Of a DNA stretch of 64,000 nucleotides, positions 53,436 through 63,746 are shown one piece after another (positions within the stretch are counted from its first letter, which is position 1; every line of letters begins with the position of its first letter). The DNA is taken from IMG/VR virus record IMGVR_UViG_3300037510_000387, one strand, 5' to 3'. Under the pieces are notes generated by a model. It was not told the DNA's origin. It was given only the letters and a program-made list of their open reading frames with translations, and did no database searches. The translations under genes and the position numbers were made by a program. Source of the DNA: a virus.

Positions 53436-53651
53436 CTAGCTCGTCGCGTACTGGCCAAAGGTTAGGTAGTGCTGAATACCGACACTGTCGTCAGCGCCGA
53501 ATGTGTCCGGGCAGCACCAACAGTCGGGACCGCCAACATGATCGCCAGGGATGTCTCGGCAGATCGTAATTAGCACTATGTCATCGTCACTGCCGGCCAA
53601 ACGTTCCGTATCTGGGCACTCAACTTCGGGACACTCTCGATCGTGCTTCAC
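53436..53651 (-). CDS. small Cys/His/Asp-rich protein
   Basis: AAAGGAG RBS and GTG; HDREC..C...C..H...CWCCP. Confidence 0.55.
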   Translation of the reverse strand: MKHDRECPEVECPDTERLAGSDDDIVLITICRDIPGDHVGGPDCWCCPDTFGADDSVGIQHYLTFGQYATS

Positions 53652-53836
53652 TGCCGGTCTCCTTTGCGCCGTGCGAGGGCAAAAAGCCGAACCAGGCCGA
53701 ACGACGGCGGGCGCCGCCAACCACAGCAACCCGCCGTGCCCGGGGGGAGGAGAGATTCCCCGTTACTGTTGCTCGACCTGGTCCGTAGCACCAACACCTT
53801 GATCTCCAGTGTGCGTGTCGTATGTTGCGTGCTGGC

Positions 53837-54298
53837 CTAGTGCTTCATGCCGGTCGCGCTGTACCCAGTCATACCGATTCCGTACACCCAAGTCCCCGGC
53901 GCCGCCGTTGCCGCCTGGGTATCGATCAAGATCTCCACCCAGTAGTTGACGTTGTCGGTACACCAGCCGATGGCGTTCTCGGTCGCCGGGGCCTTGGTCG
54001 GCCGCGCCAACCCTCCCGCCTGGCCCGCCGTCGACTGGTAGATGATGTACTTCGTCGTGGTGCCGTCCGTCACTCGCAGGCTGAAAACGATCGCCGCCGT
54101 GCCCGTGTCCACATCCGACACCTGGACGAACGAATCCGCGGTGAAGACGATGTTGATGGGCACCTTGAGCAAACGCCGGGTGTCGTTTGTTGAGCCCGGC
54201 GTGAAGGTCTCGGTGAAGATCGGAATGTCGAGCCGAGCCGAGCCCTGCGGCGCGGGCGGAATGAAGTAGTTGTAGTACGTGCCATTCACAGCAGCCAT
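53837..54298 (-). CDS. putative capsid decoration/minor capsid protein
   Basis: AAAGGAGG RBS; directly downstream of the MCP; beta-sandwich composition. Confidence 0.7.
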   Translation of the reverse strand: MAAVNGTYYNYFIPPAPQGSARLDIPIFTETFTPGSTNDTRRLLKVPINIVFTADSFVQVSDVDTGTAAIVFSLRVTDGTTTKYIIYQSTAGQAGGLARPTKAPATENAIGWCTDNVNYWVEILIDTQAATAAPGTWVYGIGMTGYSATGMKH

Positions 54299-54329
54299 TT
54301 GGTTGCCTCCTTTCGTGGTTCGCCCAGCA

Positions 54330-55487
54330 CTAGGCCGAGGTCACCAGCTCCTGTGCGTAGGACACGACAACGATGCGCCCGTAGTCGTCGGTCGTCCCTT
54401 GTTCCTTGACCGAGAAATTGGGGCACGCGAGACCGAGGAACGACGTGGCCGCGATGGCCTTGTTGTTCCCGAAGTCCCAGTTCTCTTCGTCGTTCTGGAA
54501 CAGGTTCTGGCCGTCGTACTCCTTGGCGACGCCGAACACGAGGCTCTGGGCGCCACAGAAGGCGTTGCGACGGGCGTTGGCGACGCGAGTGTTGGTCGAG
54601 CTGAGGCCCGGCGGCACGTAGTTGTTCTCGACGATGAGCACGTCGTCCCAGATGCCGAGGGCGCCAGTCCACCACGGATGGTTTTCGACTTCGCCACCGA
54701 TCATGGCCGCACGCATCACCTCCATCCACTGCGAGTTGGCCTTCATGTGGCGCAGGGCGTAGCTGTGGGCGAACAACACGTACAGCTCCCGGCCGTTGAT
54801 CGACGCCGGCCTGATCGGGATCGGCATGTTCTTGGCGTAAGCCTTGAGCGTGCTGATCGTGTCCAGGTCGATGATCGCGCTGGGGTCGTTGCCCGTGTTC
54901 GTGTCGTCGGTGTCGGTGTTGTTGCCGATCCGGTAGATGTGCTTGGAGTCGGGAGCGTGAGGAGCGTTCGAGAGCGTGTACCCCAGGCTCGCCCCGTTGT
55001 GATACCACTCGGCCTGGGTGCGGACATCATAAGCGACGCCGCCAAGGTGCAGCATCGCCCCGGCTTCGAGCACCTTCGCCCAGTAGATCCCGAGCGAGTC
55101 CTTGCTCTCCTTCCACACGTTCCAGGTGACACGCTTGGCGGTGACACGGCCCACGACCTTCGTGGCGTGGCGGACCTGGTTGATCTGCCACTTGAAGGTC
55201 GCGGTATCGAACGTTTCCTCGCGATCACGGAGCGGGGTATTGCCGAACGTGGGCTCGCCGCGCAGCTCGCGCTTGAGGGTAACGGTTGCCTGGGTGCCCG
55301 AGCCGCCGCCGTTTTCCGAGTCCCACACCTGCTTGCGCTTCTGGCACAGGGCGTCGGGGCCGTCACCGATGAACCCGTACCGCTTCGACATGAGAGGAGT
55401 GCGAAGGGCAATCTGCACCATCAGCTCCTTCTCCCATTTCTGGACGGTTTCCGGGTCGGTCAGGTCGAAATATTGGGAATTGGCCAT
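54330..55487 (-). CDS. major capsid protein (N4-gp56/DUF4043-like)
   Basis: GGAGG RBS; DPETV..W..EL, TLK.ELRGEP..G...L...EE, YVLFAH...G.W..V.I.E; follows portal and scaffold. Confidence 0.88.
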   Translation of the reverse strand: MANSQYFDLTDPETVQKWEKELMVQIALRTPLMSKRYGFIGDGPDALCQKRKQVWDSENGGGSGTQATVTLKRELRGEPTFGNTPLRDREETFDTATFKWQINQVRHATKVVGRVTAKRVTWNVWKESKDSLGIYWAKVLEAGAMLHLGGVAYDVRTQAEWYHNGASLGYTLSNAPHAPDSKHIYRIGNNTDTDDTNTGNDPSAIIDLDTISTLKAYAKNMPIPIRPASINGRELYVLFAHSYALRHMKANSQWMEVMRAAMIGGEVENHPWWTGALGIWDDVLIVENNYVPPGLSSTNTRVANARRNAFCGAQSLVFGVAKEYDGQNLFQNDEENWDFGNNKAIAATSFLGLACPNFSVKEQGTTDDYGRIVVVSYAQELVTSA

Positions 55488-55763
55488 GTTGGGCCAAACC
55501 TCCTGCAAGGTCTGCAAGTCCGGTCAGTTGGTGTCTGCCCCCGGGCGACGAGCGATAAGATCAGTCCGATGCCTGGGGACAAGCCGTCGTGACAATGCGT
55601 TGTGCTGCCGGAGGTTTATGCAGGAGGTCCGGTGACCTGCGGCCCGGATTCGTGCGGGTGTCCGGGTCCCGCGGCCTGGGCTTGGGGAACGCCGCCCAGG
55701 AAGGCGCGAGCCGGGAAGAGAAGGGGAGATGGGGGGCTCCCGGCGGCCCTTGGAGATGAAGCT
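55488..55763 (-). promoter_or_regulatory. ~275-nt structured 5' leader of MCP with two anti-SD elements
   Basis: four hairpins; ACCTCCTGCA (55619-55628) and AAACCTCC (55610-55617) are complementary to the MCP SD region TGCAGGAGGTTT. Confidence 0.6.
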
Positions 55764-55769
55764 GAGAAG

Positions 55770-55799
55770 AGTTTACACCCGGAGCCTGGAGAGTGTCTA
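55770..55799 (-). promoter_or_regulatory. putative MCP promoter
   Basis: TAGACA-18nt-TAAACT. Confidence 0.5.
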
Positions 55800-56222
55800 G
55801 TGCCTGTGCTCGATCACGGCCTCGCACTCTGGCCGAGCCCTGCTCCACTTGAGCCCGTCGACGCTGTAGGCCGTCTCGCCGCCACGAAGGCGCCGCCGCA
55901 GCACCCGGCAAAATCTACAACCCTCTGGCGTGCTCGTTCCTCGCCGTGACGGCCAACGGTGCCGGCCGACCGTTCGAGGCCCGGTGTCCCGGAGCCCCGT
56001 GGCGGGCAGCTCGTACAGGTAGGCGCTCGGGCCACGTCTTCCGGTTACTGCCGTCCGGTGCGTCAGCCCTGTACGCCGTACCTTGCGTGCCCGCCACAGG
56101 ACGCCCAGGATCGCCGCGCAGTGCTTCGATGGCAACCCGGTCTCGTCCGCGATCTCAACAGCGGTTGCGGGCCCTTCGGCGAGGACTGCCAGGACCCGGG
56201 AGCGTTGGGAAGCGCGCCGCAC
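55797..56222 (-). CDS. winged-helix DNA-binding protein
   Basis: RVLAVLAEGPATAVEIADETGLPSKHCAAILGVL...GRRGPSAYLYEL. Confidence 0.6.
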   Translation of the reverse strand: MRRASQRSRVLAVLAEGPATAVEIADETGLPSKHCAAILGVLWRARKVRRTGLTHRTAVTGRRGPSAYLYELPATGLRDTGPRTVGRHRWPSRRGTSTPEGCRFCRVLRRRLRGGETAYSVDGLKWSRARPECEAVIEHRH

Positions 56223-56231
56223 CGGCTTTGC

Positions 56232-57404
56232 TCAACGTGCCTTCCGGTGCTTGGCCGCCCGCTGCTCCTCGTTCCCCAGGAGCCCAGCCAGCACCGCCTC
56301 GACGTAATCGTCCGCGTCCTCGAAGGCGTCGGCGTCCGGCATCTGCCCCGGAAGGCTCGACGGGCGGCCAGAGGAGGCCACGGCCACGGGACCGCGGCGT
56401 TGGGCGGCCTGGGCGTCGGCAGACACCCTCTGCATGGTCGAGGGGGTGGCGCCAGGACGAGCACCGGGGTTGGGCTGCTGGCCACCACCCTGCCCGTTGC
56501 CATTCGTGGGCGCCGGCTGTGCGGCCTGCCCGTTCTTGCCCACGCGCTGCACGAGCCCCATCTGCTCCAACGCCGAAATCATCCCGTTCAACCGCCCCTT
56601 GAGCACATCGCGGTAGTCGACGCCGTTCATCTCCGCGCGCCGGATGTCGAGCTGCTGGGACAGGGCAACGAACTCATGGATCTGTGCAGGCTCGGCGTCA
56701 GGGAAATAGCTCGTGGCCGCGTCGTAGGCCATGTTCGAGTAGACGTCGTACGCGTGTGCGAACTCCTGGTCGGCCTCGCCCTCGAACCCCGGCAGCCCCA
56801 GACCCCGCGCGATCTTGTCGTAGCCTTGGGCGTCGATCTGGGCCAGCTCACCCTGAGCCTGTTGCTCGATTTCGGCACGTTGGCGGGCTTGCGCGGCTTC
56901 CCAGTCCTCACGGCGCCGGGCCTCATCGCGCCGCAAGCCCTCCTCCAGCAACCATTCCTGGTACTCGGGAGTGCCCTTCTCGGGAATTTGAGCGGCTTGC
57001 AGCTCCAGGGCCTCCTGGCGCTGGCGGTTCCAGTGGTCCAAGAGCATTGGCTTGAGGGATTCGCGCAAGGCGGCCAGCTCTTGGGCGTTGCGCTCGCGTT
57101 CCCTGGCCAGATCCTTCTTGTACGACCCGTTCTTGCGGTTGAGGTGGAGGGTCATCCGAGCGTAGGCTTGCTCGGTTGTTTCGCCAGGCACAACGCGCAG
57201 GTTTTCCTCGCGCATTGCCTGCCACAGCTCGGCAGGAAGGCCAGATGCGGCGGCCGGGTCCTGGGTTTGGGCCGGTTGGGCCGGAGCGTTCGGGTCCTGT
57301 GCCGGGGGACCGCCCTCGTCGGGGCTTGACGTGCGGGTCAGCGGAAGGTCGAAGTCGTCCATGCCAGAATCGGCCTGGGTCGGGTTGGTGCCTTCATCGG
57401 CCAT
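56232..57404 (-). CDS. capsid scaffolding protein
   Basis: acidic N-terminus, long coiled coil, C-terminal helix plus basic tail; between portal and MCP. Confidence 0.8.
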   Translation of the reverse strand: MADEGTNPTQADSGMDDFDLPLTRTSSPDEGGPPAQDPNAPAQPAQTQDPAAASGLPAELWQAMREENLRVVPGETTEQAYARMTLHLNRKNGSYKKDLARERERNAQELAALRESLKPMLLDHWNRQRQEALELQAAQIPEKGTPEYQEWLLEEGLRRDEARRREDWEAAQARQRAEIEQQAQGELAQIDAQGYDKIARGLGLPGFEGEADQEFAHAYDVYSNMAYDAATSYFPDAEPAQIHEFVALSQQLDIRRAEMNGVDYRDVLKGRLNGMISALEQMGLVQRVGKNGQAAQPAPTNGNGQGGGQQPNPGARPGATPSTMQRVSADAQAAQRRGPVAVASSGRPSSLPGQMPDADAFEDADDYVEAVLAGLLGNEEQRAAKHRKAR

Positions 57405-57440
57405 TATAAATCTCCTTTTGGCGAACCATGAACACTAGCA

Positions 57441-59663
57441 TTATTGCTGCTGGCCAGGAGTCGGTTGGCCCTGGCCTTGTCCATTTCCCTGTGCCGCGCC
57501 CTGTGCCTGCGACTGGTCCTGCCGAAGCCCCGCGAGCACCAGCGCTTGGTCCGCGGCATCCGGCGCTACCGCAGCCAGGTCCTTATAGTTGATCGACACT
57601 GCCTCTTTGGCGTGTTCCTTGTCCGCCTGCTCCTGCTGTTGCTGCTGAGCCTGGGCCTTTTGCTGCTGGAACTGCCGCTGCTGCATCTTGATCCGGGCCA
57701 GCATCTTCTGGCGCAATGCGGCCGGCATTTTCGGGAACATTTTGATCCAGTCCTCAGCCTGGAACAGGGGCTGTCCCGTGTCCGGCATCGGAGCTTGGAG
57801 CAGTTGGACCTGGGTCTGCACAACGCTCCAAAAAGTTTCGAGGTCGGAATCGCTCGGCGCCACTTCCTCGATAGCGATTTCTTTCCACGAGTCCTCGTGC
57901 CACATTTCCTTGGGCGGAATCGTGAACGTGCGTTGGCCGGTCGGTTCGCCGGTTGTCGGATCGAGCACGTCGTCGTAGGCATCGGATTCGCCAATGAACT
58001 GCACGAGGTCTTCGGGCTCCCACAACGTGCGGGCAAAGGCCAAAAAGATCCGGCCACCGTCGCGACGATACAGCCTGAGCGAGTCGATCCGTTCCGCATT
58101 GCTCGTCATGGTGGCATCGGCCAACTGCTTGATGACCTCGCCCGACACACGGCGGATATCCGAGCCCAACTGTCCAAGCGCCGCCGGATTGAACCCCGCC
58201 AAGCGCGGAATCGCTTCTCGATAGAACTCAAGCATCGTTTGGAGCTTGTCACCGTATTGCCCGGACGGCGCAGGGATCAGCTCATAGGGCCTGTTGCCCC
58301 CCGTGCCTGCCAACCGCCCACGCTGTACCTCGATCACACCACCAGGAGCCGTCCACGCCGTCAAAGCCTCGTTTTTGTCGCGGAACAACCCCTGCTCGAC
58401 CATGATGCCGCCTTTGGGGTTGATCTGAATGTCCCGGATCAGGGCGCTCATCATGTAATTGACCATTTTTTGGGCGTCTTCGAGGTCCTTGAGCAGCGAG
58501 ATGTAGAGCGTGCGGTCCTCCAGCTCGATCACCTCAGCGGCCATGGCTTGGAATGTGAACAAGCCCTGCTCGATCTCGCCTTCTTCGAGGATCTCGTCGC
58601 CGCACCCATAGATGTACTTGTACACCATGCGCTGCTTGCGGGCCGCGGCATCGTCGGGCACATCCTCGTCGAAGGCAGCCAAGCGCTCACGACGGAAATC
58701 CTTGAGCTGGTCGACGGTCATCTCAACGGTCTCGAACGGATCGGGAGGACCGTTCTCCGGTGAACCCTGCCCACTGCTCTCGGACCCCTGGAGCGCGAGA
58801 ATCCGCTGCTTGTCCAGCTCCAACGCCTGCTCGTACGACATTGACGGATCAACCGGCCGCGCGACCTCCCAGTACGTCTCCATTTCGCGCAGCTCTTCGC
58901 GCTCGATCCAGAAGCAGCGGGTTTTGGGGTCGTACACGTCCTGCATGGACAGGGGTCGGTTGCCGATGTCGCCCGACCACGGGATGCGCGACGATTGGCC
59001 CGTTTGCTGTTGGAGCGCGGACCACTGGCGCTGGCCAAGTTGGAGCCGAATCTTGTCGTAGGCATTGGACCAACGAGCGCGCACCGTCGACTGTGGCCAC
59101 CACGAGCCCCAACGATGCCAGGCACGATCGCTGAGGTTGATCTGCCGCGTGCTCGGCCACATCATCTGCCAAATTGGGACCGTTTCGTACCGGAGCTGGG
59201 GTGTTGAGCGCGACCAGTCGTCGACAAACCACCGGACCCATGAGATTCCTTGGATGCCGGGCCCGTCCCGGAACGCCGCCGAGTCGACCTGCTCGCCGTC
59301 ACATGCCTGACACACCGCCTTGTCGACGCGCGAGAGGGTTTCGGCGAACCGTGCGGTGTCCTGGTTGCGCGGGATATACTCGCGCTCGACACGCTGCATG
59401 ATCTGTTTGCCGGAGAAGGCAGCGAGGACACGGGAGGTCTCGGGCACCGTGAGGCGAGCGGAACGTTTGTTGGGGTCGTTCGCGAGGTTGCCGGGCGATT
59501 TGGGATCGGGCCACTGTTTGCGCGCGGCAAACTTCTTGAGGCGCGAGGCTTCGGCCCAGAAGTCGCGGCAGTTGGCAATACCCTCCGCGCGGTGCTCACG
59601 CCAGAGCGTCAAGGTCGACGTGTCGGTCGAAAGGCGATCGCTGTATGAGACGGTGTCAGCCAC
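57441..59663 (-). CDS. portal protein (P22-like)
   Basis: 740 aa; GISWV, WQMMWP, LLKDLEDAQKMVNYMMS, Q-rich C-terminal helical barrel; follows TerL. Confidence 0.88.
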   Translation of the reverse strand: MADTVSYSDRLSTDTSTLTLWREHRAEGIANCRDFWAEASRLKKFAARKQWPDPKSPGNLANDPNKRSARLTVPETSRVLAAFSGKQIMQRVEREYIPRNQDTARFAETLSRVDKAVCQACDGEQVDSAAFRDGPGIQGISWVRWFVDDWSRSTPQLRYETVPIWQMMWPSTRQINLSDRAWHRWGSWWPQSTVRARWSNAYDKIRLQLGQRQWSALQQQTGQSSRIPWSGDIGNRPLSMQDVYDPKTRCFWIEREELREMETYWEVARPVDPSMSYEQALELDKQRILALQGSESSGQGSPENGPPDPFETVEMTVDQLKDFRRERLAAFDEDVPDDAAARKQRMVYKYIYGCGDEILEEGEIEQGLFTFQAMAAEVIELEDRTLYISLLKDLEDAQKMVNYMMSALIRDIQINPKGGIMVEQGLFRDKNEALTAWTAPGGVIEVQRGRLAGTGGNRPYELIPAPSGQYGDKLQTMLEFYREAIPRLAGFNPAALGQLGSDIRRVSGEVIKQLADATMTSNAERIDSLRLYRRDGGRIFLAFARTLWEPEDLVQFIGESDAYDDVLDPTTGEPTGQRTFTIPPKEMWHEDSWKEIAIEEVAPSDSDLETFWSVVQTQVQLLQAPMPDTGQPLFQAEDWIKMFPKMPAALRQKMLARIKMQQRQFQQQKAQAQQQQQEQADKEHAKEAVSINYKDLAAVAPDAADQALVLAGLRQDQSQAQGAAQGNGQGQGQPTPGQQQ

Positions 59664-62756: not shown

Positions 62757-63746
62757 CTAATAACCGCGAAGGCCACCCATCGCAGCCCCAGCAGCCGTAC
62801 GGGCCGCAGCCCCTGTTCCCGGTCCCAGTCCTCCACCACCAAAGCTTGCGAGACGCTGACGCAGCAGGTTGGCGTATGGGCTCGCACCGGGTTGCTGCTG
62901 TTGCTGCTGGGCGATTCCGGCTGCGCCACCGTTGGGCAAGGGCTTGCCCCCAGGCGCCCCCCCCGCCTGCTGAGCTGCATAACTCATGAGATCGCCAAAA
63001 TTCCGAACGCCCGGTGGCACGGGGTATTTCATGCCCCCCGTCATGGCCTCCATTTCGCCACGAGCCCACCGACTACCAGCCCCCTGGCCCGAGGGATTGG
63101 CCATGTTGAATCCGCCGTCCACGTTGGTCGGCCCATAGTTCGTCACGGGGCCCATGCTGGGGCCGCCAGCGCCGCCCGAGCCGCCCGGACCCGTCATCCC
63201 GAGCTGCGACCGCAGACTGCTGATCGCGTTGTCGATGTTGCCCGCGGCGCTCGGGTCCTGGACACCGAGCTGTTGGCCGGCACGCCCGAACATGCCCGCG
63301 GGTCCGGCTTGACCATTCTGCATGCCGTCCATCGAGGCGATTCCAGGAGCGCCACCGGGGAACGCGCCAGGACGTCCATCCATGGTCATCATGTCGCCGA
63401 TCGGCAACGGCAGACGGCCAGCACCAAACGGGCCGCCAGCACCGGGAACACCACCAGCGCCGCCCGGAGGAACCGCCGTTCCGGGCGCTCCTGGCATGAT
63501 CGCGATGCCTCCGGTCGAGGGATCCCCGCGGCCGGCCCCGGGCTTGAGGGTCGCGGGGTCGAAAGGCGGCGGGGTTCGAGCCCCGGGCGGTGGCTGTGCA
63601 GGAGGTTGCGTGGGCTGCGCACCCGGCTGCCCGGTCTGGAGCCGTCGCTGGGCCGCGGCGCCGAGCTGCTGGACACCGCCATGAGCGCCCGTGAGCGTGG
63701 TGCCCTGGGCGCCAGTGAGGTTTTGACGGTACGGCTTTGTGGCCAT
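62757..63746 (-). CDS. Gly/Pro/Ala/Gln/Met-rich low-complexity protein
   Basis: AAAGGAG RBS; 329 aa, almost all low complexity. Confidence 0.75.
   Translation of the reverse strand: MATKPYRQNLTGAQGTTLTGAHGGVQQLGAAAQRRLQTGQPGAQPTQPPAQPPPGARTPPPFDPATLKPGAGRGDPSTGGIAIMPGAPGTAVPPGGAGGVPGAGGPFGAGRLPLPIGDMMTMDGRPGAFPGGAPGIASMDGMQNGQAGPAGMFGRAGQQLGVQDPSAAGNIDNAISSLRSQLGMTGPGGSGGAGGPSMGPVTNYGPTNVDGGFNMANPSGQGAGSRWARGEMEAMTGGMKYPVPPGVRNFGDLMSYAAQQAGGAPGGKPLPNGGAAGIAQQQQQQPGASPYANLLRQRLASFGGGGLGPGTGAAARTAAGAAMGGLRGY

Follow-up and report, generated by a model that had tools for sequence, protein, structure and literature searches.

The capsid protein (MCP) gene of the virus record IMGVR_UViG_3300037510_000387 is preceded by a conserved, cis-acting leader that, in the reading we consider probable, locks the capsid ribosome-binding site (RBS) in a long-range helix and thereby limits translation initiation. 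Capsid protein synthesis is probably controlled at the translation start and, judged by comparison of related loci, the leader is an undescribed, conserved family of predicted Shine-Dalgarno (SD)-sequestering RNAs located before a phage capsid gene. The stretch of DNA analysed, referred to here as the window, comprises 64,000 nt and represents the reverse strand of the 64.7-kb record; it has a genome GC of 62% and carries its late genes on the minus strand:

61956-59842, minus strand: large terminase gene
59663-57441, minus strand: P22-type portal gene
57404-56232, minus strand: scaffold-like gene of 390 aa
55797-56222, minus strand: ORF of 141 aa ('wHTH') in the scaffold/MCP promoter slot, uncertain as a real gene
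54330-55487, minus strand: MCP gene of the N4-gp56 / Phage_capsid_3 family, ATG at 55487-55485

The family assignment of the MCP is based on matches to Pfam PF13252 (E = 3.5e-33) and PHROG 334 (E = 3.9e-50). The last base of the leader is 55488, directly before the ATG, which is a small correction to the preliminary description of this DNA. Cultured phages gave no match to the window by blastn and the nearest cultured MCP by protein is only 31.6% identical, so that no studied relative exists. MCP homologs numbered 33 (42-95% identity), and 17 loci with MCP identities of 51-98%, given below by their L numbers, were fetched for comparison. In all 17 the MCP gene is preceded by a stretch free of called genes that measures ~200 nt or more (roughly 200-720 nt). 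Analyses of the anti-SD used the 13 leaders with MCP identities of 69% or more, which represent 8-10 independent lineages; a homologous anti-SD was not identifiable in the five most distant leaders (MCP identity 51-70%).

Two further observations concern the MCP and its surroundings. At 53436-53840 (minus strand), past the MCP gene and a conserved 153-aa gene, lies a gap of ~180 nt with a GC-rich hairpin (ACGGCGGG...CCCGCCGT) and a distant T-run, after which comes a small Cys-rich ORF with a good SD. Relatives likewise have a gap of 110-300 nt after the 153-aa gene, and that of the window may mark where the MCP transcription unit ends. At the other extreme of the genome, a short ORF running from ~1190 to 881 (minus strand), directly downstream of an HNH-like ORF, contains 42 residues (923-1048) that follow a hydrophobic N-terminus and share 52% identity with the N-terminal arm of the MCP (YFDL.DPE..W...). 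Possible interpretations of this ORF are a decoy, a remnant or a mimic of the arm with a role related to assembly.

Transcription of the MCP gene is predicted to start between the scaffold-like gene and the ATG, and two features define the transcript there:

55770-55799, minus strand: putative MCP promoter, sigma-70-like, TAGACA, 18-nt spacer, TAAACT
55488-55763, minus strand: predicted C-rich 5' leader of the MCP mRNA, ~275 nt, with no conserved ORF on either strand

A promoter overlapping the stop codon of the wHTH gene had been claimed, and its motifs are present. TAGACA (55799-55794) overlaps the TAG stop (55799-55797) of the 141-aa ORF, TAAACT lies at 55775-55770, and the combination is the sole sigma-70-like site in 54200-57500 (3.3 kb; 0.3 expected). 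Both hexamers are unchanged in L005, whose MCP is 98% identical, while the spacer and everything upstream differ; homology between L005 and the window starts at GCACTAGACA. L010 has TTGACC-18-TACACT in the same relative place and further relatives show, by eye, TTGACA-like and TAnnnT hexamers at this position. In L008 and L014 strong terminators follow the scaffold gene, which implies that a separate MCP promoter is needed there. From these sequences we infer that the promoter is used and that the leader is part of the mRNA, which would start at about 55761-55763.

The slot upstream of this promoter is variable, relatives having other ORFs or none. The 141-aa ORF of the window is without relatives among 5.8 billion proteins, its HTH matches are all sub-threshold and its coding signal is weak (codon-position GC 0.70/0.63/0.78). 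L005 carries a Cys-rich 71-aa ORF in the slot, L013 and L016 divergent XRE-type HTH genes, L014, L001 and L002 nothing, and the remaining relatives other small ORFs on either strand. The suggestion that the wHTH protein activates the capsid leader is therefore not borne out: the same leader occurs in relatives whose slot holds a different ORF or is empty, so the protein cannot be a general activator, and since the promoter-leader-MCP unit is kept while the slot varies, the ORF stands outside the conserved unit. As an observation in its own right, the slot (55797-56222 and its equivalents in L005 and L008-L019) is a hot spot for unrelated small genes, and the stop of the inserted ORF is a TAG within the -35 hexamer in both the window and L005.

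The leader itself has a C content of 40% and an ordinary whole-leader folding energy (z = -1.27), and is separated from that of L005 by indels of 1, 2, 5 and 10 nt. Conserved uORFs are absent, 12 of the 18 leaders having none and the others sharing neither place nor sequence except in the near-identical L012 and L013; coupling to a leader peptide was rejected, as no short ORF with its own SD over the anti-SD is conserved. Two longer reading frames were likewise discarded. An antisense ORF (55632-55949, plus strand), with GGAGG and GTG arising from the complement of the anti-SD, has a non-coding codon-position GC and is broken in frame by the L005 indels, and a sense ORF (55561-55911) is non-coding in composition. 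Divergent genes called in relatives end ~295 nt or more upstream of the MCP ATG. The only intrinsic terminator candidate within the leader is a weak 5-bp site in P1 (55741-55724), with no U-run after P2 or P3; the scanned region has four terminator-like sites versus 2.5 expected. The leader thus differs from a terminator/antiterminator attenuator or a lambda Q-type late leader in having no intrinsic terminator.

All motifs listed in the preliminary description are present on the minus strand. From 5' to 3' in the RNA, the elements of the leader are:

55710-55744, minus strand: P1 hairpin, GCCGGGAG/CUUCCCGGC, with a CU-rich loop
55675-55700, minus strand: P2 hairpin, CCUGGGC/GCCCAGG, with a GGGCG(C/G)C motif and a C-rich loop
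55641-55669, minus strand: hairpin 3, GGACCCGGA/UCCGGGCC, a lineage-specific insertion
55634-55640, minus strand: GCAGGUC, candidate anti-anti-SD or local competitor for the anti-SD
55608-55632, minus strand: P3 hairpin, CCGGA/UCCGG, with the anti-SD in its loop
55619-55628, minus strand: principal anti-SD, ACCUCCUGCA, its helix reaching 55632 via G-U pairs
55519-55536, minus strand: A/C-rich tract AGACACCAAC, then CUGACCGGA (element B), which pairs with the P3 3' strand
55501-55518, minus strand: 10-nt tandem duplication, CUUGCAGAC and CUUGCAGGA, directly 5' of the SD, adding UGCA to the helix
55496-55507, minus strand: SD region, UGCAGGAGGUUU, with GGAGG at 55503-55499
55480-55497, minus strand: start-codon hairpin, UUGGCC-CAACAU-GGCCAA around the AUG, found by eye

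The three hairpins claimed for the upstream part of the leader all exist in the window, of which P2 covaries and the third has a narrow distribution. P1 pairs GCCGGGAG (55744-55737) with CTTCCCGGC (55718-55710), and equivalents of the form GCCGGGG...CCCCGGC were seen by eye in L008, L010, L011 and L014. P2 pairs CCTGGGC (55700-55694) with GCCCAGG (55681-55675) around a C-rich loop that begins with a conserved GCGCC-like motif, and five of its six pairs change on both sides (RNAalifold, pair counts). Its covariation score of 0.289 compares with 0.171 in shuffles, is reached by none of 500 and lies above those of all slid registers. Hairpin 3 pairs GGACCCGGA (55669-55661) with TCCGGGCC (55648-55641) with one bulge, and is restricted to the window and L005, being missing from all other leaders. 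A covariance model (R1) built on P2-P3 gave one match per locus, always before the MCP gene, the leader being its sole match in the window; the model recovered its own seed sequences only, missed L009 and L006 and found no extra copies.

A conserved multi-helix leader, with a covarying P2 and a conserved loop motif, before an SD-sequestering platform has the layout of a true riboswitch, in which P1-P3 would form a metabolite or ion aptamer whose ligand decides anti-SD:SD pairing. An SD-sequestering expression platform of the riboswitch type is indeed found in the predicted folds, and as in platforms of the E. coli thiM TPP riboswitch type an upstream anti-SD pairs with the SD and a candidate competitor lies beside the anti-SD. 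The leader differs from those platforms in having no recognisable aptamer, Rfam match or ligand, in an anti-SD ~100 nt from the SD and within a hairpin loop, and in preceding a capsid gene, for which there is no metabolic logic. A cmscan of 54000-58000 (E up to 10) returned no Rfam family in the leader and four weak irrelevant matches elsewhere, and the alignments have no conserved junction, pocket-like core or other sign of a ligand pocket. P1 and the sequences between the helices vary freely, and tolerate a whole inserted hairpin. The metabolite-sensing option named in the preliminary description accordingly finds no support, and a true riboswitch is very improbable.

The evidence for an SD lock begins with the complementarity itself. 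As had been described, ACCTCCTGCA (55628-55619) is an exact 10-nt complement of TGCAGGAGGT (55507-55498) over the MCP SD, and relatives preserve this pairing with covarying changes, the pairing also prevailing in their predicted ensembles. A perfect leader-RBS helix of 10 nt or longer has a probability of 0.007 in 3000 dinucleotide shuffles, whereas two CCUCC in the leader are not unusual (P = 0.42, shuffled mean 1.4), which places the first anti-SD beyond chance and the second not. The proposed second anti-SD (AAACCUCC), in which AAACCTCC (55617-55610) complements GGAGGTTT (55503-55496), is the P3 3' strand, expected by chance as well, and it is lost in L005 (AAACATCC), where AAACAUCC in that strand keeps the stem and loses the complement to the SD. 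A third copy of ACCTCCTGCA, at 63597-63606 (minus strand), lies inside a proline-rich coding frame (QPPAQ) and was set aside as chance. Separately, L015 carries, besides the anti-SD in the loop, another perfect one of 9 nt, CCUCCAAAG, that lies upstream of P2 (L015:2290-2310, ~-203 from the MCP ATG). Both anti-SDs of L015 match its lineage-specific SD flank; redundant anti-SDs do occur, at a place other than that proposed.

The position of the anti-SD is conserved. A CCUCC-type element is found 84-148 nt upstream of the SD in the 13 leaders, in most of them as the loop of a CCGGAC/GUCCGG hairpin. CCGGAC...GUCCGG with an 11-19-nt CCUCC loop occurs in L008-L016, the stem being altered in L017 and L006, and a P3-type hairpin is the local minimum-energy fold in L009, L011, L014 and L015, with a variant in L017. 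Because the P3 stem hardly varies, there is little covariation support for P3.

Support of that kind comes from the anti-SD:SD helix, so that the covariation in related MCP leaders that the preliminary description had proposed as a check is found both there and in P2. When the leaders are aligned on the SD core, pairing at the six central positions of the helix is found in 12-13 of the 13, and 3-4 pair types occur at the two positions next to the core on its 5' side: the pair directly 5' of the core is U-A, A-U or G-C across leaders, and that one position further out G-C, G-U, U-A or A-U. Examples of matching flanks are CCUCCUGCA with UGCAGGAGG in the window, CUCCUUCA with UGAAGGAG in L012, GCCUCCAA with UUGGAGGC in L015 and CCUCGGU with ACCGAGG in L006. 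Cognate anti-SD/SD helices are longer than non-cognate ones (8.65 versus 6.46) in a free-register permutation, with p = 1.4e-4 for 10 representatives and 7.7e-4 for 8 lineages; the fixed-register values are 6e-5 and 5e-4, and duplex energies give p = 0.008. Anchored and free-register tests were used because RNAalifold on MAFFT alignments from anti-SD to ATG returned zero pairs, the SD region being misaligned. The anti-SD is thus complementary to the SD, conserved in position and accompanied by compensatory changes (the two free-register p values above), as in a translational operator.

These results bear on two readings in which a cis-acting RNA lock is absent or secondary. In one, the complementarity is a product of chance or a feature of the DNA, arising from GC-rich composition or from inverted repeats bound by a DNA-binding regulator. 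C-rich composition does favour CCUCC, CCGGAC/GTCCGG is also a DNA inverted repeat, and HTH-type genes occupy the neighbouring slot of some relatives. The permutation tests, however, control for composition, and the helix partners lie 84-148 nt apart and downstream of the promoter. The G-U pairs of the helix are strand-specific, being A-C mismatches on the other strand, which indicates that the selected molecule is the sense RNA. This reading is already disfavoured and we regard it as most unlikely. In the other, a CUCC-bearing leader or processed fragment acts in trans on other phage or host RBSs and its match to the MCP SD in cis is secondary. Like the loops of antisense RNAs, the CCUCC loop is presented by a hairpin, the leaders contain several CU-rich CUCC segments, and short 5'UTR-derived RNAs before phage head genes have been reported (YuA, PMC10914365). 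Against a trans-acting RNA, the anti-SD flanks vary from lineage to lineage in step with those of the cognate MCP SD, a pattern that points to pairing in cis, and no terminator or processing site delimits a small RNA; its probability is very low.

Predicted folding is consistent with a cis lock on the capsid RBS. By partition-function folding the SD core has an unpaired probability of 0.011 or less in 13 of 13 leaders; the value is 0.001 in the window, where SD core and anti-SD pair with a probability of 0.99. Pairing of the SD core with the homologous anti-SD has P = 0.56-1.0 in 12 of the 13, the exception being L015, in which the upstream second CCUCCAAAG competes. Shuffled leaders have a mean SD unpaired probability of 0.11-0.28; with a leader this rich in GC and in C, shuffles too are expected to show some SD pairing, and CCUCC to arise about once by chance. 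For all 13 leaders the RBS has an opening cost of 15-21 kcal/mol. With 18.4 kcal/mol the MCP RBS of the window ranks first among 32 roughly called genes, as the upper end of the range (4.7-18.4) and not as an outlier.

In most relatives the helix is predicted to extend beyond the anti-SD. A helix between the P3 3' strand and element B (A':B) is part of the MFE fold in the window, L005, L010, L011, L014 and L017, and was seen by eye as a perfect 9 bp in L008; its segment reads CCGGA(C) in the window, L005, L008 and L010 and has other sequences in L011, L014 and L017. With this extension the interrupted SD-locking helix reaches ~16-21 bp in MFE folds, and since A':B competes with the P3 stem it offers one possible switch. 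In the window, the duplication directly 5' of the SD lengthens the helix, which has 14 pairs versus 12 in L005, G-U pairs included; as a side observation, the duplicated units (CTTGCAGAC and CTTGCAGGA, 55501-55518) are missing from L005 as a 10-nt gap.

A second candidate for switching is the anti-anti-SD of the preliminary description, which stands as a possible local fold. GCAGGTC (55640-55634) can pair with GACCT..TGC, and GCAGG is kept within the subclade of the window (L005, L008 and L010), the other subclade having AGGC facing GCCU. These candidate competitor strands are only 4-5 nt long and show no covariation.

At the start codon, the hairpin of the window has the form UUGCCC...GGGCAA in other relatives, a G-C pair in the window, L005 and L010 being C-G there. 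The stem includes codon 2, and this swap coincides with Ala2 versus Gly2 in the MCP. On this sequence pattern, the hairpin would be an RNA-structure constraint extending into the coding sequence.

A constitutive structural leader without a switch is the alternative to which we give most room, although we think it rather unlikely: the leader would shield an abundant late mRNA from 5'-end-dependent decay, ribosomes would gain access by standby, and the helix would tune a steady rate. In its favour, a GACAC-AA-C motif is conserved 15-35 nt upstream of the SD. Standby binding is associated with an unpaired tract of ~16 nt or more beside a stable RBS structure; in predicted MFE folds the SD helix is bordered by the GACAC-AA-C tract, itself predicted to be unpaired, and by 11 further unpaired nt. 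At the MS2 coat gene, 30S subunits bind in standby and CA-rich single-stranded tails override a stable RBS structure (PMC5934652). The analysis likewise revealed neither a trigger nor a uORF or conserved partner gene. Such a leader would leave unexplained the candidate competitor upstream of the anti-SD and the display of the anti-SD in a conserved hairpin, and standby alone would have to cope with a large opening cost, 15-21 kcal/mol.

We therefore return to the SD lock as the preferred reading. The MCP gene would be transcribed from its own sigma-70-type promoter with a structured leader of ~275 nt, in which P1, P2, P3, a variable domain, the A/C-rich tract, the SD and the start-codon hairpin follow one another. 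The P3 loop would display the CCUCC anti-SD, which would pair with the MCP SD region 84-148 nt downstream; in most relatives the helix would be lengthened by the P3 3' strand together with the segment just upstream of the SD, and the resulting interrupted helix of ~16-21 bp may lock the RBS so that capsid initiation is limited by RNA structure. From these models we infer that the helix represses translation and that a release step exists. Capsid protein, the most abundant protein of the virion, is needed in bulk, so the lock must be overcome, and an RBS that stayed closed for good would fit poorly with such a demand. Three release routes may be envisaged, in decreasing order of likelihood: a phage or host factor acting in trans, or cleavage by an endonuclease, that parts the anti-SD from the SD; standby binding of 30S subunits to the conserved A/C-rich tract, following the example of the MS2 coat gene; and, least likely, a small-molecule ligand. 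No trigger, release factor or conserved partner gene was found near the leader among the related loci.

A more elaborate version of regulated release, which we consider unlikely, is that the leader represents a new class of sensory RNA encoded by phages, in which P1-P2 bind a signal and thereby choose between competitor:anti-SD pairing and the anti-SD:SD lock. The signal would be a metabolite or a protein reporting the assembly state (free scaffold, portal or capsid protein), and if this were true capsid synthesis would depend on the condition of the infected cell or on how head assembly stands.

The predicted lock resembles several known systems in part. In T4 genes e, soc and 49 the SD of a late gene is also sequestered by an upstream complementary segment, and a late promoter between the two arms yields late transcripts without the anti-SD. 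Unlike in T4, a sigma-70 consensus scan found no internal promoter between anti-SD and SD in the window or in four relatives (L008, L010, L011 and L014). In phage Mu the translation start of the late-gene mRNA mom is closed by RNA structure, as is predicted for the MCP leader, and the translation-inhibition structure is opened by Com, a small zinc-finger phage protein (PMC6483171). The Cys-rich 71-aa ORF just upstream in L005 is a possible parallel to Com, but the upstream ORFs have no Pfam match or homology to Com, and the slot ORF differs in every relative, leaving no conserved activator. The coat RBS of MS2 and Qbeta, with its standby site (de Smit and van Duin; PMC5934652, PMC2978339), is a buried capsid RBS flanked by an A/C-rich tract as here; it is a local hairpin in an RNA phage genome, whereas the helix described here is long-range and belongs to the mRNA leader of a dsDNA phage, in which the standby role is putative by analogy. 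The RNA in the 5'UTR of the major head gene of YuA (PMC10914365) is similar in being an unannotated leader before a capsid gene and is not homologous.

SD sequestration is a classical mechanism, so no concept is overturned by these findings. They illustrate that comparative metagenomic loci can validate or prune RNA-switch predictions made from a single sequence, and they identify a compact promoter-leader-RBS module as a candidate translational gate. No other phage protein is made as heavily as that of the capsid, whose control is usually presented as a matter of transcription alone. For this uncultured, high-GC phage clade (soil-type), the leader suggests that capsid output is also set at translation initiation, through an RNA structure maintained by selection. 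Post-transcriptional controls of virion genes are few so far, and the leader enlarges their number by an RNA family that had not been described.
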